Shown here: positions 13,303-49,697 of the stretch, piece after piece
Position numbering within the stretch: position 1 is the stretch's first letter
How the letters are laid out: the number at the start of each line of letters is the position of its first letter
From: Amphiscolops sp. MND2022
Taxonomy: Eukaryota
Reading direction: 5' to 3'
Length of the DNA stretch: 64,000 nucleotides
Assembly: GCA_964187785.1 (NCBI GenBank)
Contig: OZ076409.1
Coordinates: forward strand, 26,662,001-26,726,000
Notes under the pieces: generated by a model
Told to the model about the DNA's origin: nothing
Databases searched by the model: none
The model's input: the letters and a program-made list of their open reading frames with translations, nothing else
Program-made: the position numbers and the translations under genes

Positions 13303-13549
13303 CTGCCTGGGAGATGTTCCTGGGGAATGCGAGTAGAGATGTGGCATCGTTGAAGGTCCAGCAGTTGCCGTAGATGTCGTTCTGGAACTCCTTGAACCAG
13401 TCTTTGGAGCAGGCCTGGCCGTCGAACGCGCACTGAATGATGAAGTCGTTCTGCTGGTGGCCCAGCTGCCTCAGTTCTTCTGCGTTGATCATTCCCCCCA
13501 GACCGACCACGTCAGAATAGTCCTCGCGGATGGACGAGTGATAGTACAC
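13303..13549 (-). CDS. DEG/ENaC exon (finger end / beta-ball region)
   Basis: atacag|GTG acceptor (phase 0), G|gtgcgt donor (phase 1). LGHQQNDFIIQCAFDGQAC and YGNCWTFN are conserved DEG/ENaC motifs. Confidence 0.93.
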
Positions 13550-14375: not shown

Positions 14376-14559
14376 CTTCCATTCTTTGTTAGAGACGGCG
14401 GCATCTTTGGATTCGCCCAAGAACGAGTGGATGGAGTCTTCTTGTTCGTGGCAGAAGTGGCAAGTGTGACGACAGTTGTGCTTCATAAACGAGTAATGGG
14501 GGTCACTAATCGAACAAAAACCCTGCTTTGCCCACTGCTTGCACGACTCGTACATGTCT
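14376..14559 (-). CDS. Exon encoding ShK (ShKT) toxin-like domain
   Basis: tttgcag|A acceptor (phase 2), AAG|gttaaa donor (phase 0). DMYESCKQWAKQGFCSISDPHYSFMKHNCRHTCHFC matches the ShKT pattern D-x4-C-xx-W-A-xx-G-x-C...M-xxx-C-xx-T-C-xx-C. Confidence 0.85.
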
Positions 14560-17500: not shown

Positions 17501-18026
17501 AGATCTGCTTTTCTAAGTCGAGGCCTTTTCGGATGCTATTTCCTCATAGCAGGCTATGGTACCATTTTTGCAGCCGAGTGGTTAATGTGAGTTGCTTATC
17601 GTGAGTTTGCCCGAACGAATTGGCAATGAAAAGTTCTTAACATTTGTCGAACGGGGTCCAGCGTGTAATTCCTTGGAGGAAATGCGTCCGAAAAAGTACG
17701 TTCAGTTTGTTGAATTACTTCGGGGATAGTCCACAAAATGGGTTTTGTTGATTAAATTTGAATTTTTAGCCTGAAATGCGGTATCAATTTTTCATGGAAG
17801 GGTTTTCAAATTCATGGGAAATTAATTTAGTTGCTTTGATCCGTTTCAGTTTTGCGTGTTCCTGAAACGGGGGGTCCGATTTTTTTTCAAAACCTGTTTG
17901 GTAGCAGTTCTCAAAAAATACCGCTTTTGCACTCCGCTTCTTGTTCATATCAACACTCAAGTTTATAGAAAATGGTACCCTTTTTGTGTTTCATCTTCCA
18001 GTCTGGATTGTTTACTCGTGATGTTG

Positions 18027-18297
18027 TGTACTGACCTACATTAATAACCAATAGTATTTAGATGTTTATAGAATGTTCTAGAATGTACATTTATTTATTA
18101 TTGAATGATTGTAAATCTCTACTCCCTCAGAGAGAGAAAGCTAATAATCAGTATTCGGTTGACTTCCTTTTTGTTCTACTACTACCACCTCGAACTAGTT
18201 GTAATAAAGTTAGCTAGCTAGCCTGTCTCTTAGCCGCTTTTAGTAGTTGTGAATAGTACCACCAATAAAGCAATAACAACACTTTGAAAGCAGCACA
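18027..18297 (+). repeat. 5' LTR of element 1
   Basis: tgtactgacc...gcagcaca, direct repeat of 36131-36401; contains AATAAA. Confidence 0.97.
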
Positions 18298-18300
18298 ATT

Positions 18301-18312
18301 TGGTGCGACTCG
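18301..18312 (+). promoter_or_regulatory. Primer-binding site of element 1
   Basis: TGGTGCGACTCG 3 nt after the 5' LTR; resembles a tRNA-His PBS (TGGTGCCGTGACTCG) lacking CGT (inference). Confidence 0.65.
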
Positions 18313-20167
18313 TAAAATGTCTTGCCTTTTTTCCTGGATGATTTCTCTTCTCTCAACAATAATACAAATACCACGCTCCATCTTTGAAATTCTCTGGAAT
18401 TGCAGTGAAATCTTTCTAGAATTTCTTGAAAATTTAGTCTGTGACTTTCTGAATTTCATCAATAAATACATCATCGTTCGAAATACAATTTCTCCACTAA
18501 AACAATTAACTCAAATATAACAAATTTTCTTCACTACCGGTTTATCACGTTTTCTAACACGTCGAAACGGTTTCATTTCAGACTGATTTATCCATTGTGA
18601 CACAGTTCTGTTTCTCTTCTCTTTCCAGACTGATTTATCCGTAAGTGACACAGTTCTGTTCTCTATACTGATTTATCACAGCTAATCCGGAAGCTTGTTG
18701 AAACAGTTCTTTGATGTTTGTCTGGTTTATCAAGGTTTTCTAACACCTTTGAAACAGCAACATTTGTCTGGTTTATCAAGGTTTTCTAACACCTTTGACA
18801 CAGCAACTTTCTTCAATCCTGCTATCTTGAACGTCAGGTGGACTCCTGGTGTAATAGTTGACTGAGTGCATGTACAGCTCCACTCACCTATAAGCACATA
18901 CGCCTCAAGATCAACTTCGTGTTGGCAGAAAACCTGGATTTTCTACTTTTACGTTTCGGATCCATTTTATACAAAAAATTCTTACAAAATAGTTTTCAGA
19001 AATAGTCTCTGAATACAAAAAAAGGCAACCAAGACTATCTACAAAAAGCAACCAAGCACTATTCCATTTCTTTTCTTATTGTCGACAAACAATACAAATA
19101 ATTTCACAAAACTTAATTAATAAAAGTAACTTCAAAACTTGAACAACACAAGAAAAATAACAACACAATTCACCCTCAATATTATATCGAATACTTTCAA
19201 CAGTAATAATTTTAACATAACCTACAAAACAATTATTTTAACAAAATACCACATACAATTCTCACAATTCTTTTGCCCTAACATCAAAAGTAAGGCATGT
19301 AAAAAAACAGACACTGTAAAGTTAGTTTTCTACTTTCAGGCACCCACAATTCCAATCCCCTCCTGTAAGACTTAGACAATCAGACAGCGTTACCAGCTCA
19401 CTCTGATTCTAAGACTGACTAAAATCGTTAGTTAAGTGTAAACGTCTTTAAAGAGAATCGAGAGGACATCGAACTACGTTCGAATCTTCAAAATTCTCAG
19501 GAAGCAAAAGTAAAAGTAAAAGAAACAAAGATCAAACTTTGATCTTGATCAGTATTGATCAGACTTTGGATAGTGGACGTTGATTGTTCAGAGTTCCACT
19601 CCCTTAGTCTTAAAACACACAACCCACTTAAAATTAAAACAACCTTAGTTTTTCTGGAAGTGTCAGTAACCTTATGTTAGACACTTTAAAGTGATCCAGA
19701 CTTAAAATTACATTTAGTTTCTGTTAGCAATCCTTGAGGTTGAATACAGATCCTACTGCATCCGCTTCTTTCTTCTCTATCCAAAACTATTAACATCCCA
19801 AATAACTTCAAATTAAAATACAAATTATATGAACCCTAATATATACAATCAAATAATTTATCCTTTCAACTTTTACATTCCACCAATTAGCTCCCTTCAG
19901 AACCCTACATCAAACGACTTTGAAAGATTAATTGAACGATATCAACAATATTTTTTCTTTATCATAAATCAACAAAGACATTATCCAAGAGCTCCAACTT
20001 AGAAAATTTCTATAAAAATTAGTTTCAACGTTTTAATCTTCACATTATAACATGTGGGAAAAAGTTACCACAGTAGTACTTATTACAACATACACGTTTT
20101 GTTTCTTATTTATAGTTTTTGTTCTCCTTGAAAAAATACTTACAGTGATAAGAGATAAACGTTAAAA

Positions 20168-23100
20168 ATGTCCTCAATAACAACCCCTCTACCCTTCCAA
20201 ACTCCCGTCATTAAAAATGCAAAAGTTGTAAAATTAGAACTAAATCCATTCCTACAAAACATTATTTCACATTATACACAACCACTCCCTTTTGAAATGA
20301 ACCTCACACAATCGAAACAATCCCTCTTATTAGAGAACATTTGGACACATATCTCTTCTATATTAGATATAAAGTTTTAACTATCACCGCAGAATACCCA
20401 GCTTTTCAAATCTCCTTTCCTCAACAAAGACCTAATTCATCTCATATACAGAAGAACAATAAACCCAATTAACCTCCAAGTTCCTATTAAACAAGTTTTT
20501 CACGCTTTTCTAAACAATGTGAAAGACCACAACCTAGCACATGAAATTCCAAAATTTAGTCCAAATGCACTTGACGACCTTCAACGATATATAAACAATT
20601 TCGATGTAGAAATTATTGAAAGATTAGTTGATCCTGAAGGCAATCCTCATCATTGGTTACAAACTGATATACTACGAATTCAAAATTTCCTCTACCATTA
20701 TTTCAAAGACTTAACATTAAATGACCAAATAATTCCTCAGATCAAAGTAATATCTCTATTCCTCAGAAAATACTTCAGATTTAATTATCAACTATTATGG
20801 TCACAACAAGATCAATCTGCTTTTACAGCATTCCCAGATCATCTTACAGTTGACGAATGTTTACCATTCATCATCAGTGAACAAAATGAACATCCTTATT
20901 TTCATAAACCACAATCGATTACAAAACAAACTTTAGATTACATACGTTTTGATCCTTTATTAATTACAGAAAATGATCTATTTGCAGACAATAGACCTTA
21001 TCACTATGAACAAAATTCTCAAGTTCAGCAAAATTTACATTTTAACACTAACAATTCTACCGAAGATGATAATACCGATCAGGAAAATACACTCCAACAA
21101 CAACATCAAAATGAAATAAATAACGATAATGAGTTTACAACCCAAGAATCTACAATTTCAACACATAATCCATCACAAGCAGGAACATCAACATCAACAC
21201 ACACTCAATCCTTTAGAGTTCCCACTAGAGTTGTAAATCAAAGACAAAAAACACATAGTCCTCAATCTCACTTAGATACATCTCCAAACCGTAATATAAC
21301 TTTCAACCTTCCATACACGGATGAAACACACGACGAAACCCATTACACAATACATGATGAGATTCTGACTGCAACTAGTGCTCAGAATACTTCTGTTAAC
21401 GTTGCATCTCCAACAAGAACTCTTTCTGATTCCACAAGATACATTACTCGACCTAGATACGATCCTCCATCAATCCCTTTGCTTTCCGATCAAATAGATC
21501 GATTTCTTCAAACAACAATTTTAATGATAATCCCCAAACTTCCAATCAAAATTACGATCCATTTAATTATAACTTTTATCCTCCATCAACCACAACTACC
21601 AATACAAATATTAACCAAAATTACTCTCAAAGTAATACAACTTCAATAACACAAAATCCCTTCATACAATTATCACATACCACTGCTTCACAATATACAT
21701 ATTCTCAAAATCAAGCAACTTCGTATCCTTCCACTTCTTATTCTAACAACGTACAAGCTTCTCAAAGGAAACTTCAAAACCCTCCACTTACACATATACC
21801 AACTGATCCTTTGTATCAAATGCATCCAAATCCTAATCCTAATCCAAATCCATTACCACAAAATACAATTCGAAATATACCTCCTCAACTTACACAACAA
21901 TTAGCTCCTACACTCCAATAATTACCAATGCCACAAGATACCTTTATGAACATGTCCGCTTCAATACCAGAACCTATGGAACCTTTTGATGGTTTAGACC
22001 ATTCTTATACCCCTGAAGAATATCTACAACAAGTCGAAGCTAGATTAACCTTCGCTATAAGTGAAGAACCTCAGAATAATCCTATAAAATACAAATCATG
22101 GCATAACAGACGCATGGCTTATATACAATGTTCATTAACAGGAACAGCTCTCGATTGGTACACTAACCTTCATATATCATATAAACAACAATGGAATTCC
22201 TTTGTACATTTATTCAAAAAACAATTTTCATCTCAAAAAACAGCTTACTACGCCCAAGTAGAAGCTATGTCACTCATGAAAAAAGATAATGAAACACTAC
22301 GCCACTTCGCCCTTAGAGTACAACAATTAGTTAAAAAGGGATGGTGTCATGAAAATGCAGCTACCATAAACCTCAAAAATAATGAAATCTTTACTAAAGG
22401 AGTACCCAAGAAGTTAAAAGATTTTGCCCATAAACGACAAGTTAAACATGTATCAACATTACTTGAACCTTCAATACTATTTCACACACTTGTTAGACAT
22501 GTCGATTCTGAAGATATTGCTAATGAAAAAATTAGAACTAATGACTTAGCTCTAGAAATAAACAAAGTATCACTTGAAGATGATACAAGCAAAAAGGAAT
22601 TTGAACATGAAGATCATATATTGGTTACTCAATCTGGAGACCCAAATAACAAAAGCAAACCAGCTTATAGAAAATATTGTTCCTATTGTCACAAAAATAA
22701 TCATAGTATCTCAAATTGCTATCAAAAACAACGCGATGATGAATACCAAAAATATAAGAACCAAAGATCACGAACTCCTCAACAATCCTTTGTACAATAT
22801 TTTCGCAGTAAACCTAACAGTTCACAAGAAAATCGAAATGACAATACAAATCCTTACTCCTCCGATAATGATCGTAACAAACATAATCAAAACAACTATA
22901 ATGAGAGATACCGAAATAATGATAGATATCGTAGCAATAGTAGAGAATATTCGCAAAACAACTACCGATCTAATTCTCGACAAAGATATTATAATCGATC
23001 TCGAAGCCCATATAGATCTCGATTTGATAATTATTAACAAAGAAGAACTCCATCTAGATCTCCATATAGATCTCCATATAGAAACAATTCCAATTACAGT

Positions 23101-23400
23101 TATAACTCTCGCTCAAGATACAGATCTCGTTCTCAATCACAAGGAAGTTCCTTAAAAAGATATAATTATCCATATAGATCTCCATCAAGACCTAGAGATT
23201 TTAGATCACGATCTAGAACACCCTCACGAAATAGACCACAAAACAGAATAAATCAAGTAGACGTTAAATCCACAAAAGACAATGATAGTACAAAGTTTGA
23301 AATCCATACATGTCAAACAACTGAAATAGCTAATACAATCACTCCTTACAGTTGGTTTTATCCATTATATATTCACGCTTCTGAAGCCAAGGATAATATA
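20168..23400 (+). pseudogene. gag: Extended gag (N-terminal domain, N/Q/T/S-rich linker, capsid, CCHC knuckle, RS-rich tail), disrupted
   Basis: ORFs 20168 and 20519 share a frame (one stop); frameshift near 21480; capsid-like PFDG...LTGTALDWY...W..FV.LFKKQF; zinc knuckle CSYCHKNNHSISNC; stops at 21919 and 23035; in frame with protease. Confidence 0.85.
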
Positions 23401-26400
23401 TTACCCTCACAATTAGAAATCTTATTCCTCTTAGATACAGGAGCATCCATATCTGTCTTGAACTTACCAACATTTCATGTGATTTCCAAACAATTAAACA
23501 TCAATGTTCCAACCAATTTTCAAAACAAAAGAGCCAAAACTCTTACAGTTGCAAACCAAACTGAAGTACCAATAAGACACTATATTTCGATAACCTGTTT
23601 CACTGAGGTAAATCATCAAACGCGATCCTTCAATATAGATTTTGCCGTAGCCAATATCAAATACAACATTCTTGGAACACCCTTTTTCAAAAAACACATC
23701 CAAAATATCGATTTTCAACAAAATATTATGACTTACACAGAACAACATCCAAAGCTCTCAACAAAAACAACATTTTCCACATTTACAGAAAAAGATTATC
23801 CATATATTTCTTACATCTATACTATTAAATGTAAAGAACCAATCCACTTTAAACCAAGGTCAGGAAAAACCATACATTTCCCAATTAAAAACTATTCAAA
23901 TCTACATTTTGAACTTGAAGATAATACAAAATTCTATCCAACAAACCCATATACATATTTCTTACAAAAATTTAAAAATATTTTTCATTTCTCAGATATG
24001 ATAGTCAATGAAAAAAGCAAAGACTCTTGTGCAACTATAATTCAAAACTTTACATCTTATCCAGCAACAATACCACGAGGAATCATTGGATACATAGAAA
24101 TACCTATTACTCAAACAACTCCTCCTCACTACAGAGTTAATGATGTAAATTCACTTATTCACTCTGTAATACACGCGTATCACCCTGATACCACAACTCC
24201 GATTAAACCAACTCCATATGCAGATATGAACTTATGTACTAGGGTAACACCACAATCCCTATTAGAAATAAACAAGATAGAAGTCAACGACAAAACACTT
24301 CAACTCCCTATACCTTCTATTACAGGAAACCTTCGACCCTCAGATAAAATTCGAAAAGATTTTCCTCCATTACCCTATTCTACAGAAAACCAACAATTCA
24401 TAAAGAAATTTAACTTTGAATACTCGGATTTATCCGATACAGAATATGTAAACCTCTGCAATATTTTGATTAATATTCAACATTGTTACGCCCAACATAA
24501 GAACGACGTAGGAAAAATTTCTACTCCATTCCGAATTAGAATAAAAGATAATTGTAAACTTCAAACACAAAGACCTTCAAAAGTACCAATTCACTATAGA
24601 GATAGACTAAATAAACTTTTACAAGAACTCGAAAAATACAACATTATAAAGCAAATTGGTTCCACTTCAGATGAAAAACACACCATTGGAACAACATTTT
24701 TAAACCCTTTAATTATTATCCCCAAAGGTGACTCAATAAAAGTTGTTTTAGACGCAAGACGTCTAAACTCAAATACCAACCAAGAACTTGAATCTTGGCC
24801 TATTGAACCTTTAGCTCCTCAATTAGCTAGAGCCAATAAAAATATAAATCAACTATTGATCTAATGTATGCCTATGCTCATACACCATTAGATGAAGAAA
24901 CAATTAAACTTACAGGATTTTCATCCGGTGACAAATTATACGCCTTTATCCGTGGATTTTACGGATTAAAAGGACTTCCAAACTTTTTCACAAAACAAAT
25001 GTCAACTTTCTTCAGATCACTTTTAGACAAACGTTCTGCGTTAGTTTATATAGATGATATTTTATTACTCGCCAATGAAAAACAAGAAATGTTTGAACTT
25101 ATAAAAGAATTACACACAATAGCTTCTCGAGAAAATCTCAAACTTGCACCCGAAAAATCCTTCTACATGTTACTCAAAGTAAAATTCCTTGGACACGAAA
25201 TTAGTAACAACACAATCAAACCAATTCCATCTAAAATTGAAGCCATTAAAATAATCCCATCACCAAAAGAAAAGAAAGATATTATGCAATTTCTTGGCAG
25301 TGTTAACTTTTACTCAAAATTCATTGAAAAACTTCATATAAACCTTAAACCATTGTATACACTACTACATGATGATGTTAAATTTCAATGCACACCTGAA
25401 CTAGAAAAAATATTTCAAAATGTTAAAAATGCAATGACAGCAGACACTGAATTAACAATACCCAATACAACACATCCATTTTTTATAACAGTAGATGCTT
25501 CATTAGTAGGTTTAGGCGCAGTCTTATTCCAAATGAACGAAGAAAATAAAATGAGAGTAATCTCTTACAACTCCAGAATTCTTAATACACAAGAACAAAA
25601 ACTTTCAACTTTAGATAGAGAACTTCTCGCAATAGTTTACGCACTACAAATATATGAATTTTTGATCATTGGATCTCCTCATCCCATATACCTCTTCACA
25701 GATCACAAGCCTTTACTCCATTGTTTCGCAAAGAAAGGAAATCTTAGTCCTAGGTTCTATAGAGCACAAATGCAATTAACCAAATTCTCCAAATTAAAAA
25801 TCTTTCATACCCCTGGAAAAAACTTAACTGTCGCAGATATGCTTTCACGAACGTTTACAAAAGAACAGTTACAAGTACACCAATTACGACACAAACAATT
25901 ACCACCTCAAATAGATTTTTCTATCATGAAAGATAATCAACTCAAACCAGTACATTATTTAGTAAAACATGAAGAAATCAAATATAATCAAAAGAATGAC
26001 TGTCATCCTATTCTTGCTGACTATGGAGACGACCAATTCTCTATCCGAATAAATAACAAAGGAGAAGATATACACATAAAACCTTTAGATTCCTTCTCTT
26101 TTCATTCTATTGTCCCATTTGAATTCAAATATAAAAAGCCTAAAAAAACCAAGCAAAGTCTCTCTTACAACAATCGACAATTCTTAATGATACTGATAGT
26201 CTCAGTGACGAAGACGAACTAACTCAATCAAATAACATCCAACATCAAAACTCAGACATATTAAAGGAACACACACTTGCTATACAATATCCTACCAAAT
26301 CTGATTATTGTAAACAACAAGTTCCATTTTTTGATCCATCTTTTTTTAAATACAAAAAATATTTTACTTATTTCTTCCTACCAGAAGATACACAAATAAC

Positions 26401-28169
26401 CATTGAAACAATAAAAACTCAACAAAAACAAGACACTGTTTTACAAAAGGTTTACCAATGGATACTTAATAATGAAAGACCCTTACAAATAGACCCAACA
26501 ATTGCAGCTAATTCTTTCTTATTAGTATACTACAAAATTTTCAACCAATTATATATTAACCATGACACAAACATTATCCATATAGATTATCCTAATCTTC
26601 ACGATTCCAATCCGAATCAAAGAGACAAAATATGCTTACCATTTAAACTCTTCCATGCAGCTTTTAACAAACTTCATGCTCATGGACATTCAGGTATAAA
26701 AATCTCCATCAAAGCTTTTACCCAATTTTATTTCATACCATATTTGAATAAACGGATGTCAATATTCATCCATGATTGTATTGAATGTCAACAAAATAAA
26801 CATAAACCAAAAAATACAAACTGCATCCATGCAAACATTCTCAGAAAATGCTTCATATTTCAATTATCGAATATCAATGGACACAAAAGGACCTATAAAC
26901 CCGCCATCAAATCAAAACTCATACATTCATGTTATAGTAGACGCTTTCAGCCACTTTGTAGTAACAGTACCTATAAAACAAAATAATGCTCAAAACGCTG
27001 TTAACTCAATACTACATCATTGGATAACAAAATTTGGACCCCCTGTATATCTAGTTACCGACAGTGGAACAGAATACATTAATTCAGAATTTGCAAATCT
27101 TTGTACAACAATGGGAATTAGACATTCACCAAGAACTCCTTATGCACCATGAACAAATGGTCTAGTTGAAAATCAAAACAGAAATCTTGGAACTCATCTC
27201 AGACTTTTCTTACATAACACCCCAGAAAACTGGTCTACACAAGTTCATATGTATGCTTATGCACATAATTCACAACCACTTTCTGAAATTAACTTATCTC
27301 CTTATGAAATAGTATTTCATACTGTACCCAGAATTCCAAATAATTTTGAACTCAATCTCCAAAAAGATACATATAGAAAATGTACTTCCCAATATTGTCA
27401 AGAATTACCACTTCATACACACTATGACAAATCAAATTTAAACCCCTTTTTCCATAAAATTTTATCTAAACCGATCCCACAATGGATCTTAGCCACTGAA
27501 ACTGCTATGATACAAATATACCACACAGTATATGAAAACACAAAACGAAAAATTAATTCTTACGCGTATTTTAATAAAACATACCACAATCCAAGACCCT
27601 TGGATATCGGTACATTTGTACTGAAAACAAATTTTCTCCATGTTCATTTTTCTGACAAATTAAAACCTCTCAGAATTGGACCATTCAAAATTTTTAACAA
27701 AATTTCTGATATAACATATGAAATTGTTAATCAAGATGGTTACACATCTCACATACACAGAAACCATTTAATTCCTTATTATCCAAAAGAACCAGTTATT
27801 TTTCCTTTCCTACAACAGTATAATCCTCATTTATTCAATGATAATTATTCAAATATAAACGACCAAATAATTAACTCCGATGGAAACCCACTTAATGACG
27901 AAGATCAATTTTCTTCCACAACATCTAATAAAGAAACGGATATACCATCCACAATCGACTTCCAACCAGAGCATTTTAGCCAATATTCTTCATTTCCGTA
28001 CCAACAAAAAGAACAAATTACTCAAAATACCAACATAGATAACCAATCAGATATTCATGACTATGATATCTTTATTAACCCCCGAAGACACTCCTATAAT
28101 AAATACAATTTCCGCCCACAACCAAGAAAAGACTATCAACTTTTCCTTGGAGAAAACGATATAATTTGA
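23401..28169 (+). pseudogene. pol: pol: aspartic protease, RT, RNase H, integrase (disrupted)
   Basis: LDTGAS (23431-23448), RT YIDD, RNase H ITVDASLVGLG / ELLAIV / TDHKPL, integrase HHCC, SMDTKG / VTDSGTEY core and GPF motif; frameshifts near 24841, 26150 and 26810, TGA at 27150. Confidence 0.96.
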
Positions 28170-28359: not shown

Positions 28360-29759
28360 CACAAAGATTCCAAAATTGATAGACATATTCACTCACCATC
28401 ATCAACCACAAATAACTCATCTTCTAGTTCAACACATTCACTCCAAAGACTACCTGAATATACAGCATATTTAAACTCAGATACAGACATACTGGATTCC
28501 TCATCCTCAAATCTTAGCCCATCCGCTCCTTATTCTCCTGATAGAGTACCAACAACACCCACAATTACACCTATACCCCAAACTCAAACACTAGTAATAA
28601 CAACTCAATCACAACCTACTTCACGAAATCTAACATTTGCCGAAACAAAGTCACCAATTTCTGTCAATTTTAAATAGACCTCCTCTTCCACCAATTACTA
28701 CCACTCGTTCCGTTCATATCCCTGATCCCAGCTCAGTTCTACAATACATAAATTCTTGTCCACATAAAGTACCAACTGCAACGAAAACAAAAAGAAAAAC
28801 TCCTTTACCTACATTACCACAAAACCTTAATTTATCATCATCAAGTAATACTCCAATAACATTCTTACCAGAACCTTCATTGAAATCACCAGCAAAGAAA
28901 TCACAACAACACCCAACTCCTTCACCATCTGAACTAAGTTCATTCACATTTTCTCAAATATATCCCAAGCTTGAATTAGAACGTGTACATTCCACCACCA
29001 CCTCTTCTTTAACAGATTTATATCTTAAAGACAAAGATTCTGACTCAACTGCTAGTCCTAGAATACCAAGACATAATTATAACCTTCGATCTCAGCAACA
29101 AAGAAATTTTTAAGAATTAACATCTTTAACTAGTTCAAGTCTAACTCAAGACTACTTAGACAGCACGCCCAACCCAGATTGGACACTCCTTCTCTTTCCT
29201 CATCTCAACCCACTATTCAATCTTCTTTTTCACTACCATTCCAAATCACATCAGGATTTGAAACAGCTTCTCTTCTCTCTGAAGACCCAGCAACTAAATC
29301 AGATAGCGCAGCTAATTTTTCACGAGTTTACTCGCCTAGTTCAATAGCATCGAACTCTTCTACACAATTACTTGAATATTTTTTAGAAGATTTCTCAAGA
29401 CCTCCAACACGAAAGTTAACTCAAAAATTGTTCGTACACTTAACGAAGATCCTCGATACACGGTCTTACCTGTACGATTTATAAACAACAGGTCACTCTC
29501 AACTCAAATGAAACAAAGAGAATTACGAAGATTACAAGAACAACAACTCACATTAAAATTTGAAGTAGAAGTCACATTCAATTCGTTAGGACCTCACCCA
29601 TTCTCGCTTTCAACAAGAGTAGCACACAAAACAACCCCATCACCATTCATAGTCACATCCATTTCTTACCTTTGTGACGCAGAAGTACCTGAGATTAGAA
29701 CAGGACATATAAACTTTTTTAATCCTTGTTCCGGACTTACTTATAGAACAAAATTTTAA
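28360..29759 (+). pseudogene. Accessory Ser/Thr/Pro-rich ORF between pol and env (fragmented), function unknown
   Basis: Consecutive reading frames 28360-28679, 28637-29113, 29179-29484 and 29508-29759 with continuous S/T/P-rich composition; contains PSAP and PPLPP. Confidence 0.6.
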
Positions 29760-29761
29760 CT

Positions 29762-32340
29762 GATATTTTAACCAAGAACCAAATTACCCTTACCCTATAC
29801 TTAATACAAGTTGTTAAATACACATATATAATACATATAGTTCACTCCTTCGTTCAACCTTCAACTGTTCCTAAAGTTGACACAACCAATTCCGAAAATC
29901 ATATTTCAGACAAAGACCCTAACATTTTAAACTTGATGGTATCCCATTATGATTGTGCAAAACAAAACAACCTAAGACAATTCAGTTTATTAAATGTTGA
30001 ACCATGTAAACAAGCACCCTCAGATATACAACACACAAAAACCCAAGCAACAGTTTATGTTAGAGCAAAAGCCAAACGAACAAAAGCCTTTAAATGCGAA
30101 GCATATATAAAGATTGAAAAAGTCTGGTGTTCACAAACATTCACATCTAGTAGACGATATGATCGTTTACAATGGGGACAAAACACATTAGAACTTCCAA
30201 AAATAATGGACCCTTTTGAATGCAAGAATATGGTAAGATATTTAAACGCAACTGATAGCGAAGAACTAAACAATTACTATATACAAACTCTTTCTCATTG
30301 TTTGACGGTAGTAACTATCAAAACACAATTGAACGAATTCAAACACAATTCAGGGTAAAAAATTAAATACATGGAATATTGGAACCTTCGTATTCGATGA
30401 AAATTATCCCGACTGGATAGGTAATGTTACACAAAATACATACTCCAGATGTCGATCAGACCGAGAACATTTGATTACCCGACAAAGTTGGAAACTTAGA
30501 ATTGTTAACACCGCAATAGAATATGACAATAAAAACAATCAATTAATACACGACGGACACATATTACCATGTTATCATTCAGATGGATTTTGTAAACCAA
30601 CGACCAAAACTCCATACACATTAACATGGTTTGATGCAAAATTTTGCCTCATATTTCAACTTCAAGAATTCATTGGTAGAATGACACGAATCAAAGATAG
30701 ATATTGGATTGAAACCGATACCTTCATTGAAACTTCAAATATCAAAAAAGAACTTCAAACTGAAGGAATACAAGGAACAAGATATCCAAATGTGAAAACA
30801 CCACAATCAAAAATAAGCAATCCAAGCCTTTCTCGATTTGAAATATACCCAATTGCACAAACCTTCTGTGGAAAACCTGAACCATTATTCTCAACACAAT
30901 ATGATGACATCTTTGTTACATACTTAGATGGTTTCAATATGAACACAGGACTACCAAAACCACACTCAATAATTGATCAAACAATTAGTGGAAACATAAA
31001 ATATGATGACTCAAATAAAAGGTATATATTCCCTGCATTGAATATATCAAATAATTTCGCCACTTTAGATTACGATGCCCATATTAATACAAAAATTGAT
31101 TTCACAATAAATCATGTATTTAAATCCATGACAGTACAAGAACTAAACACCCTTCATGCAATATGTGAACTGGAAAGAACTCAATTGTTAACAATCTTAG
31201 CTATGTCAGTAAAAAATCCTCAATTAGCCGGTTTTCTTTTAACTGGAAATCGTAGTAACTTTCTCTACGTTGAAGGATCTACAGCATGGCTGTATGATTG
31301 CCCTCATTTTATATCACCACTATACAAAGCAGATAAATGCTTTGATAGAATTCCCATACATTACAGAGAAACGACAATGTATGTTGATCCTATAACAAGA
31401 CAAACTTTTAACTACGCAACACCAATTGAATGTGGAAATAACCCACAAAATATAATTGAATTAGACCCAGACTCTCTTAACACCAGAACCACTCAAACGA
31501 GAAGCACCACAAATGTTTAAACCTACCCAAATTAAAACAACAATCACTCCTAATACAATTACCGCCCAAGATGCCGGTATATACTCAAATGCAGAATTAG
31601 ATCAATTCTGGAATAGAGTTTTATTTGCTAAACATTCAGACACAACCCTTCAATTACTTGGAAAATCATTAAGCTATGATTTTATTACAGTGCACAATGA
31701 TAAACATTCATACTCAGGACATAATCCTTATAATCATTTAAGGATTGGAGTACATGACCACTTGTTAAACCTTTTACCACTTTTTAATCCTGACTGGTTC
31801 AGTCAAGCATTCATTAATTTCTTTGGATACCCATGTTATGTTTTAACACAATGTGGAATTTAGTTTTCAACATTTCTTTTCATTAGAGAAGTTTTAACAT
31901 TTTTACTCAAATTCTACAGAACAATTAGCATAAAATACAATCTCCAAAGTAACATTTCCATTTTGAGTTCAATAGCCCATGGATTTTTTAATATAGTTAC
32001 ATCGGAAATGGTAACCGATTTAAACAATACAGGAAAAAGAAAACGGATATATACTAAACACAAAATTACAACAAGTGAAAATGACAATATACTATTGCCG
32101 GAAAAAGAAATAAAAAACAAACTAAAATACTCCGATAATGACTCCCCTTATTTACCTCCGAAATATTCCAGTAAGAATTCAATATTTCAATCACCGCAAA
32201 AGACACACCCAACTACTGTCAAGACACACCCAACTACTGTCAACGATATTAATTCTCAGGACTATGACCAAGTAGTATCAAATGTAATAGCTATACCGGA
32301 AAGTCCTGCTAAAGTCTTTATTAAATTTAATCCCTCCTAG
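29762..32340 (+). pseudogene. env: Envelope glycoprotein, class III fusogen (chuvirus G / herpesvirus gB-like), disrupted
   Basis: Hydrophobic signal-like stretch ITLTLYLIQVVKYTYIIHIVHS, then HYDCAKQNNLRQFSLLNVEPC; INTKID...ICELER...NPQLAG...WLYDC...CFDRIPI...YVDPITRQ...TPIEC; C-terminal TM around 31805-31915; frameshifts near 30290 and 31475, TAG at 31861. Confidence 0.85.
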
Positions 32341-32795: not shown

Positions 32796-34088
32796 ATGGA
32801 ATCCTTGCCCGAAATTGATGTAGTTAATTCTAACCCCTCTGAATTGCTTGCACCCCCCTTGAATATAACCATTCAACAAAATGTTAACGAAGATAATAAC
32901 TCTTCTTCAAACTCTCAAGATCTCTTAGAAACTATTCCTATTGAACAAATAGATCAAGTTAACGCAAGATCTCAAAAAAGAAAGTACCCAGACATAACTG
33001 CAGACAAACCATTTATGGAATCTGGCGCTTGCCCTCCTTTCATAAAGCCAATTAAACAAGATGAAGATAGAGATTGTGAATTAGTTTCTATTCTCTCATC
33101 AAAACAGTTTACCTTTCAATCTCAGTTAACCTCGTTATACATGATTCCAACAAAATACAAATTTATCATCAGAGAATTTAAAAATGATTATCATACTTCA
33201 ATTGCTTCAAAATTGATCACCCCATATGATTGGTGGTTGAACAATAAAGTGAAAATTTTTTCACTCCAATATAATTTCCTCAGACCATCTCCATATGATC
33301 TTCGAACCGAAGAAAATGACGCAAATTTTCTACCATACTAAATCAAAAAAGCTCATCACATAACTTATCAAAAGTTTCTTCAATATAAAGAACCCAAAAA
33401 TTATATATTCTTCAACTCCAAATACACCTCGCCATTTACTTTCAACTCAGAATACTTAATAGATCATACCAAAACAAAAGGAAAACTTAGAAATTATGAC
33501 CCGCTGAAACAAAGTTTTCTTTTCCTTCCGAACGATAACCCAAAAAGACCAATCATTGTACCACAAGAATACCTCATCTTGAACGACGATTCGTTATTAC
33601 AAGAAGATATACCTCAAAATATATCTGATCCTCTTCCTCCACTTCAACATATAGCCTCTCAACCTTTAGGAGACTGTGAAAAATCTTATTTCTACGCAAT
33701 GACCAAAAAAGGATATTCAAATAACGAATTAATTTTCATTATTTCTCACCTGCTTTCACTTCTTACAAATGGAAATCATAAAGAACACAAAAAGACAAAA
33801 CCAGAATTGCCAAAGAAAACTAAAAATGACATTCCTCAACCACAAAGTTTTCGCCCAACTGACGAATTACAGAAATATACCGAAATTCTGAACATCATAA
33901 AACCTTATCATCGTCCGAACCGAGATATTCTTATAACAATCGCCGAAATCGTAAATACCCTTGAACAAGCTCGAAGCATTATACAAAATATCGTATTTGA
34001 TACGACAAGAATTAGCCAATCAGCTTTGTGTATTCGCATATCTTTAGACGAATTCAACTACACAATTGAAAAAATGCACCGATCTTAA
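32796..34088 (+). pseudogene. Accessory ORF downstream of env (~430 codons, single internal stop at 33339), function unknown
   Basis: ORFs 32796-33341 and 33579-34088 share a frame and the intervening codons are open; preceded by tattttag acceptor-like site at 32761-32768. Confidence 0.7.
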
Positions 34089-34494: not shown

Positions 34495-35087
34495 GTGAAT
34501 ATCGTCACAACTGCTTCTTCATCATTCCTTCCTCCTCTCAAGCCCTCCATCCAAAAAGAATTCCAACGTATCTTCCACAAAATTCAACGAAATTCTTCAT
34601 ATTCTTCAACATGACAACTCTTCATTCTGGTGACATAGATTGCCCGATAGCTCCTTTTCTTTCAATTTGTTCAGCTCGATTGCGATCCTTGATTCTGAAA
34701 AAGCATTTAACAACATTAAATGCGCAACTCAAAGCAGATAAAAAGGCTGACCCTCATCTTACAAGGATGATATTGCTCAATATGTTACAAATATTCCAAA
34801 TTACACAAATAAATTTTGACCAATATCTTCAAATTCATAAACATCCTGATACATATTCAACCCAACGAGACACCGCTACCCAAACAGAGCATACGACCAT
34901 CAAACCCAAACGTTTAATGCGAAGTCTATCTAACAGAATGCGTTCTGAAATGGAAAAACAAACTCTAAATTCCTATTGGCCTTCAAATGATAACGACGAT
35001 ACTGATGAAGAACTTCAAAAAGACCCTCCAGAAGGACGTCTAGATGATAATTATCCATACAAAACGTATACTTACGTCTCTTTCTAA
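34495..35087 (+). CDS. Second accessory ORF downstream of env, probably a spliced exon, function unknown
   Basis: Branch point CTAAT (34481-34485) + tattttag|GT acceptor; frame open from 34497 through ATG 34611 to TAA 35087. Confidence 0.55.
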
Positions 35088-36130
35088 TATCAACAGATGA
35101 CATCAACAGCACTCGTCCACTCCCATATTCAAATCCAACAATTGATCGTCAAAACTCAGCACCCATCTACAACTTCATCGCCGCCCAACAGATGAACCAT
35201 CTTCATCCATCTGCTGACCCATCTTCATCCATCTGCTGACCCATCTTCATCCATCTTCTAATCTTCAATCTTCAGCCATCCAGTCCCAGCCGAAGAAGAT
35301 GATTAATAATCAATAATAAAGGAAACTCAAAAAACATTGTGCATGATAATATGTCAAAAACTTTCAAACTTATATCGAAAAATTAACAATGTATTTATTA
35401 TTTCAAATTTCATCCCACCCATATTTATTTGCCCTTAAAATCCTTAAATTCACACCCATACCGATATTTAATTGCTTATTTTTAAAAAATAATTAATAGT
35501 TATTATTTTTCGGTGCTATCCTATCCAAAAAATTCACATATGTTAACAATTAATCTTTTCAAATTTCAACAAAACAAGTTCAAAAATAGATCAAGCACAT
35601 TGTTCAAATCAGATTCGAATAATGACAGACCCAAATTCTCAAAGTTTTCAACGTTTGTTACATAACAAACCCGCCAAAGTTGATCACAACCTGATATCTT
35701 TTCAGATAGTTTTCACACTTGATGAAAAAATTTTAACAACAATAATTTTTCAATGACTCTTTAACCTTTAACTCGTATGATGTTTGCTCACGTTTGTTCA
35801 ATGCGAAGTTCATTCAAAGACTTCGACAGAGGCATAAAATTGAGCAACTACTAGTTCAAAAAACAAGCCGACGAAAGCATAGTGAAAAAGAACACTTTGA
35901 CGCTTTTTGAACTGTAGTCGCACCTACGAGGTGTCACTCAAAAATTTTGACAAGTCGAGGTACACCAATGAGTCGAACTTACACCACTCTTAAAGAGACT
36001 TATGCCAATAATCCATCAAATGAAAAATGTCAACTAGCTGAAACGCTAAAAATATTTAAACAACCTTTTTACTCGACTTTAATTCATGATGCTACCTTGA
36101 AATTTTATTTTCTTTAAAAACCGGGATGGA

Positions 36131-36401
36131 TGTACTGACCTACATTAATAACCAATAGTATTTAGATGTTTATAGAATGTTCTAGAATGTACATTTATTT
36201 GTTATTGAATGATTGTAAATCTCTACTCCCTCAGAGAGAGAAAGCTAATAATCTGTATTCGGTTGACTTCCTTTTTGTTCTACTTCTACCACCTCGAACT
36301 AGTTGTAATAAAGTTAACTAGCTAGCCTGTCTCTTAGCCGCTTTTAGTAGTTGTGAATAGTACCACCAATAACGCAATAACAACACTTTAAAAGCAGCAC
36401 A
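36131..36401 (+). repeat. 3' LTR of element 1
   Basis: Direct repeat of 18027-18297; preceded by purine-rich aaaaaccgggatgga (PPT-like). Confidence 0.97.
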
Positions 36402-37588
36402 GTTGTCGAGCTCTTCAATTGAAATACGCCTTCGGAAATGCGCCATAATCAAATACTGAAGTATTTCTAGGATAAGCTCGAGAAAAGAGATAAGAATCAA
36501 TGTTTACTCTCAACGTAAGGTTACTGTTATGATGCAAGCATTTAGAGTATAGGCTAAGTAGTTGTTAGTAAACAAACTAAAAATAGCAACGGAGATATAA
36601 TGTTGTTTATCAACAGTGTCTTCTACATTCCCCCTTCTGTGATTGGAGGAGAATCATCCAATGGATATCCATTGCGGTCCTTTTTGTCGTTATGTTCGGT
36701 CGTCCGTCCCTGGTCTGGTGATGTTTTCTCCGGTGTTCGTGAGAAGCGTGTTGTATTTCCGGTTGTGGGTAAGTTGTACGTCTTGGGCGATTCACTGGTC
36801 GTCCTCTTTGTCCTGTTCCGGCATTTCTTTCGTGCACTCCGGAAGTGGTGACAGGGTGATTCGTTTTGTTGTGTTTCCTGTAATCAGATTGGTTAACTGA
36901 GTCAATTAATATAACGATTGGGTTTGTTTTCGTTAACCTCTTTGACCGGCGTAGGTTAGCATTTTTTAGTTTTTCTATGTCTTTTTCTTTTTCAGTGCTA
37001 GAACTTAGATTACTTGCTAATTCTAGTTCTGAGAACTTGCTAATTCTGTTTTGTTATTATAAACTGTTACCTTACCGGAATTGTCTCTGATTTGGATCTC
37101 TTGCCCCGACTGTAGGGAGTCTCTTATTGTTTGGTCTATGTCGGAATCCGACATTTGGTCCGTATTTATGGTTAATGGTCCCATCTCTGAGCTTTTTGTT
37201 TGCCTGGTGTTTTGCCTGAGGATGCTGAGGCTGTGCGGTCTCTTATCAGCCGTGGCTTGCCTCTGCCATTTGTTCCTGGCCGTTTAGTGGTGGGCGGTTC
37301 TGGGCTGGTATCCAGATCTTCTTTCGATTAGGATTTTTCGGGAGTAGTGGTGGCTTTGTTTGGTTTCCTTGCAAATCTCCCGTCTGGTCCTCTTAGTCCG
37401 GTCCCTCTGTTTGTTGGTTCCTGTTCAAATGTATCAATATGTTTGCTAATAAGTTTACGGTGAATAATTTTATTATCTGAAGTTGTCACTCTATGTTTTG
37501 TTCCATTGACTGCTGTTTTTAAGTGTTCCGAGCGTGGGCTTTCAAATTTTCCCTTCTCTTTTTTTGTTCGATGAATTGAAACGGATAT

Positions 37589-40500
37589 TTACTTACCGTT
37601 TTTGCACCTTTTTTGTTTCATTGGTAGATGGTCGGAGCTACCGCCTTCTCCACTGAATGTGTATACCTGAAAGGTATCTGGTCTCGCTGAAATGAAATCA
37701 TTGGTTATTGTTTTGGTTTTGTCTAATTTTAGCATGTTACTCCATTCCGTGTTCGGTTCTCTGCCGAAGTGTAATTCAAATACGGATTTTCTTAACCTAG
37801 TCTGCGGTTTTGTCAGCATTACGTTTAGAGCTAAGTCCAATGCTTCTCCGAATGGTTCTCCGGCTTTTATATTAGTTAACAGATTTTCTTTTAGAGTTCG
37901 TACTCCTGGTTCCACTAAGCCGGTTGTGTTGTGAATATACGGTGTTCCGTATATTATTTTGAAATATTTGATTTTGCAAAAATTTCTAAACTGACGTCCG
38001 GTAAAAACTGTTGCCTTATCCGTTCTTATGGTTTTCGGTATACTGTTTAAGTTGCAGTAATGTTCTAGAAACTTTATTGCCGTTTCTCCGTCTTTAGTTT
38101 TGCACAGACTGGTGACTGGCCATTTGCTGTACCTGTCCAATGAGAGCAAGATGTAAAATCTACGGTTCTGATCCGTGATTGGTCCAATGAAGTCCAATTG
38201 GATTTCTTCGTTCGGTGCTCTTAATGGGGGTAAGCTATTTTGTTCCGATTTAGGTATATTAGGTTTAATATTCTTACTGGAAAGGTTGCACGGTATGCAG
38301 TTGTCGGATTTTCGTTGTATCGCCACCTGAAGTGTTTTGCTGATAAAATCATCTTGTTTCTGAAGGGTGTCCTTTCTGAAGTATGCTTATGACGGTTGTT
38401 TGCAGGTTGATTGGCACATTGATTTTTTCTTCAAAGAATACCAGTCCGTATCGTGTTGATAATTTTTCTTTTTGTATAGGCGGTACTCGTGCGGGATGTT
38501 GTCGTATTGTTGGCGCTCCAAACAAACGAGTGTCTTCAATAGTTTGGGGTCAATAGTTGTTTCAGTCATAAGCAGTTGTAAGTCTGTGGCGAATTCTGTT
38601 TCCATTTCTCGGACGGTATTTTCCAGTTGTTTTGTTCAAGGGCTTGAACTCTCGCAGCGTGTCCCATCTTTATATACTGTACGCTCTTTACCCCAACATA
38701 ATTTGCCCAGTTGATGGTGGGTACCTCCAGTACTGACGGTGCCAGTTCGGAGTCGCTGGAAATTTCTCTTTCCTCCATTGGGGTAATTTCTGTTCGGTTG
38801 TATTGTTTAACCGGTTGACATCTTGATGTGCCCGGTAGGTCGTCTGGTGTTCGTTGCGGAAGTTTTGGAAGTTTTGTGGTGAGGGCGCGGTAAAATGCCA
38901 ATCCGCGGTGTACTCGTCCGATTGCTGTTGTCGATGTGGCCGGTTTCGAATTTCCCTGGCCGGGCTTTCTATTCTCCGGATTGTTTCGGAAAGTCTTTCT
39001 TCTATTTCTCTTCTTTCTCCACGGAGATATTTTGGTTCGTGGTATTTTTTCCATTTGCCGCTTGAGAGTCGGTATCTTCCTGGCTTCACGATGTTTCGCC
39101 ACCGCTCTATCAAACCGATTGTCTCCTGGGAGCGATGTATTTTCTCCAGATAGTCTGGCGTCCATTGTTTAAAATTTAACTTGATTTTGAGAATCAATGC
39201 TGCTTGTTGCGATACGATCAAGGCTATTAATGGCGCTCTGTTCACGCGTGTGTTCCGTTGACGGTTGCCTTTTCACTTTTGTCCCATTTGGGGTTCCGTT
39301 GCTCGAATATGATTGGTTGAAATGGTTGCTAAGGCAACCAACTTTTGAAACAAAATCGTAATGCGGTACCATGCTGTTGATTACGTTTTCTTCTTCGTAC
39401 GTTTCATCTTGTTGTGGCGGCGCGTTTGGAATTCTACTCAAGTAATCCGTCAATGCTAGGTGCTTTCCCGTATTGTGGTTTACGATAATTTTGAAATGCG
39501 CTAATCGGTCTAATCACCGAATTAAGCGGGAGCTGTACGTTTTATTTTAGCCGTTGCGTTTTATTAATGGCTCTAAAGCTTGGTGGTCGGTCAGCAATTT
39601 TATGGGTTTACCGTATATACTACGGAAATGTTCTAAGCCCCATACTACTGCCAGTAACTCTAATTCATTGATGGCGTATTGTTTTTCGGTACCCGATAGA
39701 AATCTGCTTGCGAATGCTACGGCTTTTTTTCGCCGTTGTGTTGTTCTTGCCAGAGTGTTGCGCTTAAACCTTTTGTACCTGCGTCTGTAGTTATTGTATT
39801 CGGTAAACTGAAGCTGTAATGTGCCAAACACGGTATCTCCCTGATTTTGTTTTTTAATTGCGTAAATGCTTCGGAGTTTTCTGGTGTCCTGTTCCATTTG
39901 CTGTTCTTTTTCAATAATTGTCATAGTTAATCTGTTTGGGCTGACAAGTTTTCGACGTACTTTGACAAATTTTGAATTGCTCCTAAAAAGGATTTTGGTT
40001 CTTTTTCGTCCTTTGGTATTTTTAGTCGGCGCATTTTAGAAGAAAATGAGCCCGACTATTACAGTGGCAAGTTTTTTTTCTTTTTTTTTTCGTCAGACCA
40101 CAGAATGTATGCGTAGTGGACACTTTTTACAGAACTACTAAAAGTACTGAACCGGCAAGCGGAATGACATCTGAGTTACTGCAAAGGGTCCCCCCTTTCG
40201 TGTACTCAATTTTTAACGTAAGATACAAAACCGGACGGGACTACAGGGTCCCCCCTTTGAATTTTTTTCGGCACTGTGCGACTTTTTTTTCGAATTTTCT
40301 TTTGTGGCCAAACGGTCCCCCCTTCAAGTTTTTTTGATATTTGGCAGCAAACCGAAGTTTCAAAAAGCCCAAAGGGTCCCCCCTCTCTAGTTTTCGGCAC
40401 TGTGAGACTGTTTCGAAATTCTCATTTTTCATTTTTTCAAAGTTTTTTCAAAAAAAAATTCCGGATTTTTTTATTGTCCAATTTTTTTGATATTTTGCAA

Positions 40501-42753
40501 CAGACTGGATTTTCAAAAAGCTGAAAGGGTCCCCCCCTTTTACAAGTTTAAAAACTTAGCGCTTTTTTGAGCCTTAGATATAGCGCCGACTTTAGACGTT
40601 GCCGTCTTGTTAGTTCTTGTATGTATTTGAGTTTGTCTCGTAACGGTCTAATACCGTTTTGGTCAATTTTGTGCCCACCCATTCTTTCGGTTTTGTTCTC
40701 GGTCAGTCTATATCCTGCGTTTTCTAATTTGGTTGATACGTCTATTAACTCGTTTGTGTTGTTCTTTTGGTCCTTTTGTGACCACTAGTATGTCATCTAA
40801 CCATGCCGGATGTTTGTTTTCCAGTGTTTTGTCGATTTTTTTTGGAATACGGTCGGTATGTCTGCAAAACCGTAGAAACTTTTTGAGAACCTGTAGTAGC
40901 CGGTAAAGTTTCCTCCGGTTACAGCAAATATGCACAATTCCATTGCTTTCTTCGATAACGGTAGTTGATCGTACGCGTAGTCCAGATCAAACTTGGATAT
41001 CCATATCTCGTCTGCTTCTCCGTTAGCAATTGTTTTTGATTTTCTGGATAATAACTCCTCCGTATTTGGTATTTGTGCTTTCCTTTCACTGTGATTCCAT
41101 TGAGTTTCCGTGAATCAAGAGCTATTTTTACAGCTTTGTCTTTTTTGACTGTGATAACGGCTGTGCTGACAAAACAATTTTCGTCGATATCTGTTGCTTT
41201 TTCGATACGGCCGTTTTTCATTAGTTTTCACTTTCTTTCCCGACTGCCAGTTGTAAATGAATTGGCATTGGTCGGCCTTTGTGTTGTATCAGCTTTGCGT
41301 CTGGTTTTAATTGGATGTCTACTTCTATTCTTTTTATTGTTTTGTTTTCCTTGACTTGTTTACCGAATTTTTTCTTTAGGTGAGCGATATCTGGGTCTTT
41401 TTGGATGTTTTGAATTTGTAGGTGATTTTTTTCGATGTTTAGTTTCATTCCCATATGTTTCATCCAATCTAGTCAGAGTAGTGGGTCCGTTCCTTTTTTA
41501 AGTAATCAAAAGCTCTAGTTTCTTCTTTTCTCTGTCCATTTGAATGTTTGCTATTGTTTTATTTTCAAATTTGATTTTGTTGTTGTTTGCGTCTTTGTAA
41601 TCCTGTTGGAGTGGGCATATTGTTGTAGTTCAATTGAATTTTTGTTTTGCTATGAAGTGTGACCGGTGATCCGCTGTCTATTATGAGTTTGATTGGACGG
41701 TTGTTCACCAATTCCGTCACGGTAAAGAATGGCTGTCTGTCTTTGGATATTTGTCTCGTTGAATGGACCGTGTTGTTTATTGAATGTATTTTGTTAGGTG
41801 TCCAGTTATCTTCTTCTGCACTTGTTGCTTTGGAGTCTTGTTGAATATGTTTTACTCTTCGGTCCGAATTTTGTTTTGATCGGCATAATTTTGCGTGATG
41901 ACCTATTTTTCCGCAGTTTGGACACTTTTTGTCATTGCTGGGTAATCGTGTGATTTATTCCAATTTGGTGCCCCGCATCTAATACAGTCCACGTTTCTGA
42001 ATTTGTTGTTTTTTTCTTTCGGGTTTTTGAAAGGTTCATTTTCTATCCACATGTTTGATTTTTGTTTCTTCTTCAGAATCTCTTGATGCGCTCATTTTTC
42101 GTACATGTATTTGTGGATGGTATCGGTGATTGTTTCCACCGACATGTCTCCTTTCTTTCTTTTTTTTTCTTTAGGTCATTGTCACCCGTCGTTTTTCCAG
42201 TATCGGATAGGAACTTTGATGCGAGCAGTTCGGCTGTCGTTATTTCTTCGAATTCGCAATTCTTTTCGATTTCTAGAATGCGTTTCCAGGTTTCTGCAGC
42301 TGAATCTCCCGGTTCTCGTTTTAAATTGAAGAAATCTGCTCTGCTATGGTGTTTGTTCTACTCGGGAATGAAGTGTAGTCGGAAAAGAGTGTAAAGTCGG
42401 TATAAGGGTAGAGAACTCGGTTCTCTTTCTTTTACCCTCTTTGTCATTTCCGTGATCGCTGATTGTCAAATCGCCCATATGAATACATCTTTGATTTCCT
42501 CTTCCAACTGGTCTCTGAATTGTGGTAGTATTTCTTTGGAGTTGGTCATTTTCGATAAATCGATATCACGTGTCATCTTGATTAATTGGACGAATTTTCT
42601 CCACCATAGTTTTGCACTGGTGTGGTCATTCTTCTCAAGGATCGGAATGGGTAACTTCTGTGTAGATGTCCGTTCTACCGATCTCGTCGTTGTATTGTTT
42701 GGGATTGACTGGCTACTGTTCGGTCCATTTATGTCGCCGTCTTCGTCCTCCAT
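37589..42753 (-). pseudogene. gag-pol of element 2 (many frameshifts; split by a Helentron-like insertion)
   Basis: Start MEDEDGD (42753); knuckles CIRCG...H and CPNCGKIGHHAKLC (~41880-41990); protease IDSGSP (~41665-41682); RT WLDD (~40795); RNase H TTDAG, ELELLAVVWGLEHF, TDHQAL; integrase LDFIGP / IRTD / GLVE. Confidence 0.93.
40021..40611 (+). mobile_element. Helentron/DINE-1-like element, family A, nested in the RT of element 2
   Basis: tttAGTCGGCGC ... GCGCCGACT-ttagacgttgccgtCTTGTT, inserted in a T-run; removal restores the RT frame. Confidence 0.92.
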
Positions 42754-43356
42754 TGTTTTGTTTATATTGCTCACTGCGCCATGAAGTATTTCTAGGATAA
42801 ACTCGAGAAAAGAGATGAGAATCAATGTTTACTCTAAACGTAAGGTTATTGTTATGATGTAAGCTTTTAGAGTATAGGCTAAGTAGTTGTTAGTAAACAA
42901 ACTAAAAACAGCAACGGAGATATAATGTTGTTTATCAACAGTTTTTTCTACAAATACAGAGTAATAACTTTCGTCAGTGCTGTACGCAACTATTACAGTG
43001 ATGAATGTTTTCCTCCAGATTAAAACACCACAGATTAAATAGACCTTTCCAACACAAACTTGAATTATCTCAACTGTTACTTCATTTCTGTGCAACATTG
43101 AGCTGACCGCACAACGCATTTTAATCTTTTTACCAAATATTTGTTTCTCTAGAGGATCGAAAAAGTCGCCGACTGACTTCTTTGGCGTTGAAAGATTTCT
43201 TTCCTTGACTTTGTTTTCTCCGAAAGGGTCGTTGTTCATAATATTTGGATATTTTACAACCATCTTGAAGTAATAAGAGCTGAGATGACATTTTTCTCAA
43301 AAACAGATCCTACGGAAACTTTGAAAAACTATGAATGGGGTGTCGATTAGAGGCGT

Positions 43357-43740
43357 TTTTAGTCGGCGCGTTTTCCTTTTAAGAAAAAAAAAGCGCTCGA
43401 CTATAACAGTGACCTTTTTTTCTTCAGACCACAGACCTCACCGTGATGCGTCCACTTGTTAGGGAAACTCCTGAAACTCCCTATGGACAAATCCGGCCAG
43501 TGCAAACTTAGTGCAAAGGGTCCCCATTTTCATTTTTTTAAACTTTTTTAACGTTACCTACAAAACCAGACGAGACTAAAGAGTCGCCCCTTTCAATTTA
43601 TTTTCGTCACTGTGCGAATTTTTTCCGGAATTTTTTTAATGTCTCAAATGTCCCCTTTTCAAGTTTTCTGATATTTTGCAACTGAATGTATTTCAATAAA
43701 TCCCAGAGGTATGTGAAAAAAGGTTTCTGAAAGGTATGCG
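43357..43740 (+). mobile_element. Truncated family A element
   Basis: ttttAGTCGGCGC start and family-typical interior; 3' end replaced by a 14-bp tandem array. Confidence 0.75.
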
Positions 43741-43760
43741 AAAAACTTGTCGAGGGCAAA

Positions 43761-43908
43761 TCGTCGAATGCAACTCGCCGACTGCAACTCGCCGAATGCA
43801 TCTCGCCGAATGCAACTCGCCGAATGCAACTCGCCGAATGCAACTCGCCGACTGCAACTCGCCGAATGTATCTCGCCGAATGCAACTCGCCGAATGCAAC
43901 TCGCCGAA
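43761..43908. repeat. 14-bp minisatellite (TCGCCGAATGCAAC)n
   Basis: About 10 tandem units. Confidence 0.95.
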
Positions 43909-44140
43909 ATTAAATGGTAGAAAACGAGTCCAAGACTATTTCGTCGAATATTAATTGGGTGCAAACTTGTCGAGTAATTACAGAATACTAATCCGCTGTT
44001 GATACCCCACCAGAAGTTTTTTTTATAAATTTTATTGCCAAGTGCTAATTATGGATATATTTTATTTAATAGATGCGTGACAATTTTCAGCTTTACACAT
44101 AAAGTAGCTTTAATGGTTGAATAATTGCTTGAAATGTAAG

Positions 44141-49687: not shown

Positions 49688-49697
49688 CTGGAACAAA

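Follow-up and report, generated by a model that had tools for sequence, protein, structure and literature searches.

The window (the whole stretch of 64,000 nucleotides that was analysed) contains a broken env gene that is part of an 18.4-kb Ty3/Gypsy element and encodes a predicted class III membrane-fusion glycoprotein. In our assessment, with a probability of roughly 0.72, the Env proteins of this family would coat the particles of the element and fuse them with a neighbouring cell.

An 18.4-kb Ty3/Gypsy element carries env

The carrier of env is a Ty3/Gypsy LTR element with paired LTRs, a target-site duplication and a Gypsy-type domain order, forming a complete unit of 18,375 bp with the following features:

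18023 to 18026, + strand: left target-site duplication, GTTG (LTR-boundary inspection)
18027 to 18297, + strand: 5' LTR, 271 bp, with the ends TGTA...CACA (direct-repeat match)
18301 to 18312, + strand: primer-binding-site (PBS)-like stretch, starting with TGG, 3 nt past the 5' LTR
20381 to 23037, + strand: gag region, broken (Retrotrans_gag, PF03732, in 21922 to 23037)
23038 to 28169, + strand: pol, five overlapping or adjacent pieces, domains in Gypsy order
28360 to 29759, + strand: ORF-X, four pieces, Ser/Pro/Thr-rich, between pol and env
29774 to 32340, + strand: env, predicted class III fusogen (PF24664), three frame breaks and one stop
32796 to 34088, + strand: ORF-Y, 430 codons, one internal stop
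34611 to 35087, + strand: ORF-Z, 158 amino acids, family-less
36113 to 36130, + strand: imperfect polypurine tract, just 5' of the 3' LTR
36131 to 36401, + strand: 3' LTR, 271 bp, differing from the 5' LTR at 6 of 271 bases
36402 to 36405, + strand: right target-site duplication, GTTG

The order within pol is a protease-like DTG motif (found by eye), RT, RNase H and integrase (H2C2, rve and C-terminal SH3). Pfam matches along gag-pol were, in order, PF03732, PF00078, PF17917, PF17921, PF00665 and PF24626, and none of the 16 ORFs scanned matched a BEL/Pao family in Pfam. The first part of the gag region (20381 to 21921) probably belongs to gag as well. The PBS-like stretch matched no entry of the PBS table in the accessible material of a published survey of such elements (PMC13524379), and the 2-kb leader between the PBS and gag (18298 to 20380, + strand) contains a 46-bp tandem pair at 18717 to 18808. 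The GC skew is uniformly negative from 18 to 36 kb, so that the whole element shares one strand bias, and no internal LTR pair was found inside it among the repeat families shown; therefore, env is not a nested insert. The LTRs are 2.2% apart, which indicates a fairly young insertion. The linkage of gag-pol to env was seen in this copy alone, sibling copies being known as proteins.

Outside the element, a second, apparently env-less Gypsy-type element (36457 to 42952, − strand) starts approximately 50 bases past the 3' LTR; its repeat spans 171 bp or more (95%), and an rve match lies at 37592 to 38386. Host exons on the minus strand comprise two DEG/ENaC (PF00858) pieces with an adjoining ShK domain (7493 to 7849, 13298 to 13627 and 14295 to 14630) and an LDL-receptor class A repeat (49392 to 49748), which shows that the host is an animal with introns. 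If the DEG/ENaC and ShK pieces were one gene, an ENaC with a ShK domain would be odd. Minisatellites with units of 15 to 16, 14 and 29 bp are located at 258 to 474, 43716 to 43939, 56761 to 56976 and 7144 to 7243, the 29-bp unit being nearly palindromic and dispersed, and a MITE-like dispersed repeat family is present at 2234 to 2545, 4425 to 4760, 40184 to 40611 and 63360 to 63640.

Env belongs to a multicopy family with a Monjiviricetes fusion domain

The initial annotation had proposed a class III fusogen of the chuvirus G/herpesvirus gB type from a set of motifs, all of which are present on the plus strand where it had placed them:

29948, + strand: env motif YDC...SLL.V..C
31083, + strand: env motif INTKID
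31152, + strand: env motif LHAICELER
31275, + strand: env motif G..AWLYDC...CF..IPI
31380, + strand: env motif YVDPITR
31419, + strand: env motif TPIEC

Two spacers given there as x8 and x11 are in fact x9 and x12. Three of four consecutive env pieces matched PF24664 (Monjiviricetes_fusion) in collinear order, covering model positions 25 to 121, 302 to 428 and 444 to 509 (E values of 2.3e-5, 1e-13 and 0.0045), which argues that the motif set is not due to chance. The middle piece alone (50.6 bits) lies above the curated cut-off of 27 bits, and the fourth piece had no PF24664 match.

A protein search with the largest env piece yielded 1,730 candidates, 11 of which were long relatives. The cluster lists contained siblings with a naturally open frame, of 857 and 858 amino acids, the latter termed P0020. 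P0020 scored 89.6 bits against PF24664, and seven of the eight relatives tested exceeded the cut-off; the sole miss, P0008, is an env/ORF-Y deletion fusion. P0293 is a fusion of the same kind, and in sibling P0016 (1,323 amino acids) env is partly duplicated head-to-tail within one open frame. Fourteen ectodomain cysteines were invariant in all eight aligned proteins, down to 23% identity, and a furin-type R-x-K/R-R site was found in none of seven env proteins tested.

The predicted fold of Env is of the class III type

The open sibling P0020 was modelled as a monomer with AlphaFold from an 86-sequence alignment (mean pLDDT of 67.7, pTM of 0.45). The model has long beta-hairpins within the first 390 residues, a 45-residue central helix (437 to 481), a beta-rich block or crown (499 to 586), membrane-proximal helices (616 to 694) and a TM helix (696 to 733) followed by a disordered tail of about 100 residues. 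Two hairpins have tips near 124 to 130 and 220 to 235, adjoining the invariant C122 and C230; these candidate fusion loops are of low confidence and moderately aromatic. The annotated C-terminal TM could be retained as a moderate one (hydropathy of 1.59 at residues 704 to 722 of P0020), while the signal-like hydrophobic stretch turned out to be weak (best 19-residue hydropathy of 1.35 in the window piece, judged by hydropathy). The N termini of this env family are weakly hydrophobic, those of sister families more strongly.

Foldseek searches with the P0020 model found similarity to class III fusogens and, together with the PF24664 match, bear out the homology proposed initially. Against the PDB, 224 matches were obtained (86 with an E value of ≤0.001); the 32 best were all herpesvirus glycoproteins, 31 of them titled gB, led by HSV-1 gB (E value of 4.1e-12), and VSV G and gp64 were not among these 32. 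TM-scores were 0.15 to 0.26 by query and up to 0.36 by target, with rmsd values of 15 to 46 Å; we read these values as domain shifts in the monomer model, and they permit no claim beyond "same fold class". Searching the PDB by sequence, with one env piece and with the 86-sequence profile, gave no match. Against predicted viral structures, there were 309 matches; the best was a chu-like virus glycoprotein (E value of 3.5e-32), and next came the glycoproteins of chu-, xinmo-, qin- and rhabdo-like viruses, at 8 to 16% identity. ESM Atlas matches of P0020, at only 0.86, are a lead.

Env might mediate transfer between cells

In working family members, Env likely coats the budding particles of the element and would mediate their fusion with an adjacent cell, probably on a route from soma to germ line, as proposed by analogy with Drosophila gypsy/ZAM (also in the accessible discussion of PMC13524379). 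By analogy with gB, VSV G and gp64, Env would be secreted as a type I membrane protein and trimerize via its long central helix (model residues 437 to 481); two hairpin-tip fusion loops would insert, and refolding to a hairpin would proceed without furin cleavage. The extra ORFs might have an accessory role for the element. On the same analogies, the family may form infectious enveloped particles, as the initial annotation had suggested.

It is rather unlikely, in our view, that Env, though genuinely homologous to class III fusogens, acts as a passenger or as a cell-bound fusogen and makes no free infectious particle, the element spreading within cells of the germ line or through cells that fuse directly with one another. 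Sibling env clusters have 100 to 1,758 database members each, and clusters of hundreds to thousands of members are typical for intracellular amplifiers. Most of the members listed for the cluster of this env are fragments (11 of the 15 are shorter than 710 amino acids, and 2 of the 15 are open and full length), the signal peptide is weak by hydropathy, and the published survey calls the route unknown outside Drosophila (PMC13524379, accessible text). Against a pure passenger, however, ectodomain conservation far exceeds that of the tail across families that are 50 to 60% apart (helix/crown identity of 76 to 84% against four sibling proteins, tail identity of 17 to 25% in the three that have one), and many copies are open in cluster P0003 (9 of the 15 listed). 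Both observations are compatible with cell-bound fusion.

Origin of env

Outside the family, the nearest env relatives are unnamed database proteins at 20 to 35% identity, and the family sits on a long stem of 1.64 changes per column in a tree that held no named viral sequence. If this Gypsy lineage had recently acquired its env from a chuvirus, a scenario put forward for the mosquito element Anakin, this would agree with the chu-like glycoproteins as best viral structural matches and with the Monjiviricetes_fusion family assignment; we regard it as very unlikely, as the viral proteins are no more than 8 to 16% identical, the scores of xinmo-, qin- and rhabdo-like viruses are almost as good, the stem is long with unnamed relatives as neighbours, and none of 64 pattern matches in IMG/VR was confirmed as a contig encoding a relative. 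Of the "captured chuvirus-type env" that had been annotated, the env of a Gypsy element stands (LTRs, gag-pol and PF24664), while its capture from a chuvirus as such is conjectural, given the low viral identity, the closer unnamed relatives and the ancient association of env with pol for which published work argues.

Other class III env lineages have amplified too: a second set of multicopy env clusters (P0208 to P0211, P0214 and P0215; 35 to 290 members, on long contigs) is only 25 to 29% identical to this family. No gag or pol match was found at the three distant env loci examined. At one of them (L002, 361 to 5741), a distant env relative of 746 amino acids lies between orphan ORFs of 168, 316 and 497 amino acids, with a hydrophobic segment in the 316-amino-acid ORF and no gag or pol within 6 kb; this locus is either another multi-ORF element or a virus.

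The env copy in the window is defective

Alignment with P0020 in four segments (89 to 96% identity) revealed frame breaks in env near 30.29, 30.36 and 31.47 kb, three instead of the two frameshifts annotated, and confirmed the annotated in-frame stop, which lies at 31861 to 31863, where the TM region starts. The start Met is absent at the position where siblings start, and 10 of the 858 P0020 residues have no counterpart, while all 16 cysteines of P0020 are kept. With three frame breaks, one stop and no start Met, this copy can no longer make Env. Although frame breaks are frequent in long-read contigs, it is highly improbable that they are assembly errors in an intact copy, considering the in-frame stops in both env and ORF-Y, the missing start and residues in env, the 4 to 11% amino acid divergence from the open sibling, and a gag and pol that are broken as well. 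Both recent capture and assembly error would be compatible with a particle-coating, fusogenic Env in working family members.

Additional ORFs flank env

The gap between pol and env is 1.6 kb and is occupied by ORF-X. Its last two pieces resemble, at 44 to 45%, the sibling proteins P0063 and P0031, both assigned to env clusters of sister families; ORF-X may be a separate ORF or the tail of pol. ORF-Y has no known family and no TM, and its model shows helices at the C-terminal end only. It matched 307 database proteins (E value of ≤0.001), its main cluster has 705 members (12 of the 15 listed with 425 amino acids or more), and it is 44% identical to the C-terminal half of the sister-family protein P0008. 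ORF-Z has no family match, is a singleton at 90% identity and may not be a gene. The extra ORFs are plausibly accessory genes of the element. More tentatively, and with somewhat less than even confidence, the family might represent a "complex" invertebrate endogenous retrovirus lineage: giant Gypsy elements that have, besides a class III env, two or three accessory genes that are conserved and of unknown fold, and that have reached many hundreds of copies, in several families, in a single animal genome, possibly in a phylum outside the published survey.

Comparison with known elements

Plant Gypsy elements are known to have aORFs, additional ORFs in sense orientation that lie downstream of pol and before the 3' LTR, where they apparently replace env. 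The pairing of Gypsy with a gB-type env is already in print as widespread and ancient. In the accessible parts of their survey, Chary and Hayashi (PMC13524379) describe 1,512 env-carrying Gypsy elements, with the gB type across many phyla, argue for an ancient association of env with pol, and point out that mosquito BEL/Pao elements have a chuvirus-like glycoprotein that is also found adjoining Gypsy pol. The element described here is a gB-type errantivirus in their sense, with gag, pol and a gB-type env in one LTR unit; against the stricter description of a multicopy element with all three ORFs intact, this copy is broken, and open siblings were seen for env only. Like their gB-type errantiviruses, it has the order LTR-gag-pol-env with a Gypsy pol, a class III env in which a central helix is present, cysteines are conserved and a furin site is not obligatory, and many copies. 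In contrast to them, it measures 18.4 kb compared with approximately 7 to 13 kb in the rows with LTR coordinates among 70 of the 1,512 (the search windows of the survey were limited), and it has the 1.6-kb pol-env gap and extra ORFs flanking env, as compared by description, not by sequence. The accessible text of the survey uses "additional ORF" twice and "accessory" never, and describes no ORFs flanking env; Xenacoelomorpha are absent from its taxon list, and six such names are absent from seven supplements, a gap that would be relevant only if the host were a member of that group.

Chuvirus-derived glycoproteins are carried by Anakin BEL/Pao elements (Dezordi et al. 2020, PMC7642597), and arthropod Jingchuvirales glycoprotein EVEs adjoin Gypsy fragments (Dezordi et al. 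2023, PMC10084718), according to the accessible parts of both reports. As in these cases, an LTR element has a glycoprotein of the chuvirus type where env would be, and retrotransposition has multiplied it; the carrier here is Gypsy and not Pao as in Anakin, and the glycoprotein is far from named chuviruses (≤16% identity in structural alignments). Env resembles Jingchuvirales/Monjiviricetes glycoproteins (PF24664) and herpesvirus gB in its predicted fold and C-terminal ectodomain motif block, whereas it is longer than viral Monjiviricetes glycoproteins (858 amino acids) and has a 100-residue disordered tail; no nucleoprotein or RdRp was found among the ORFs scanned. Bdelloid rotifer Gypsy elements with ORF3 (PMC5408684, accessible text) likewise have additional sense-strand ORFs in the interval from pol to the 3' LTR, which there apparently replace env and here are additional to it. 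Literature searches returned no report on acoel LTR retrotransposons with an env glycoprotein, and the arrangement of a giant Gypsy element with an additional ORF and an env-like gene was not found by title and abstract. Less usual here are the length of 18.4 kb, the high copy number and the presence of conserved extra ORFs next to env.

Significance

The env-Gypsy pairing by itself is not new. The question of how gB-type envelopes carry Gypsy elements from one cell to another is still open outside Drosophila (PMC13524379, accessible text). Where several families are abundant in one host and many env genes are naturally open, native tissue would be well suited to a search for expression and particles. 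If ORF-X and ORF-Y are true accessory genes, the complexity of this invertebrate retroelement would match that usually credited to vertebrate complex retroviruses.
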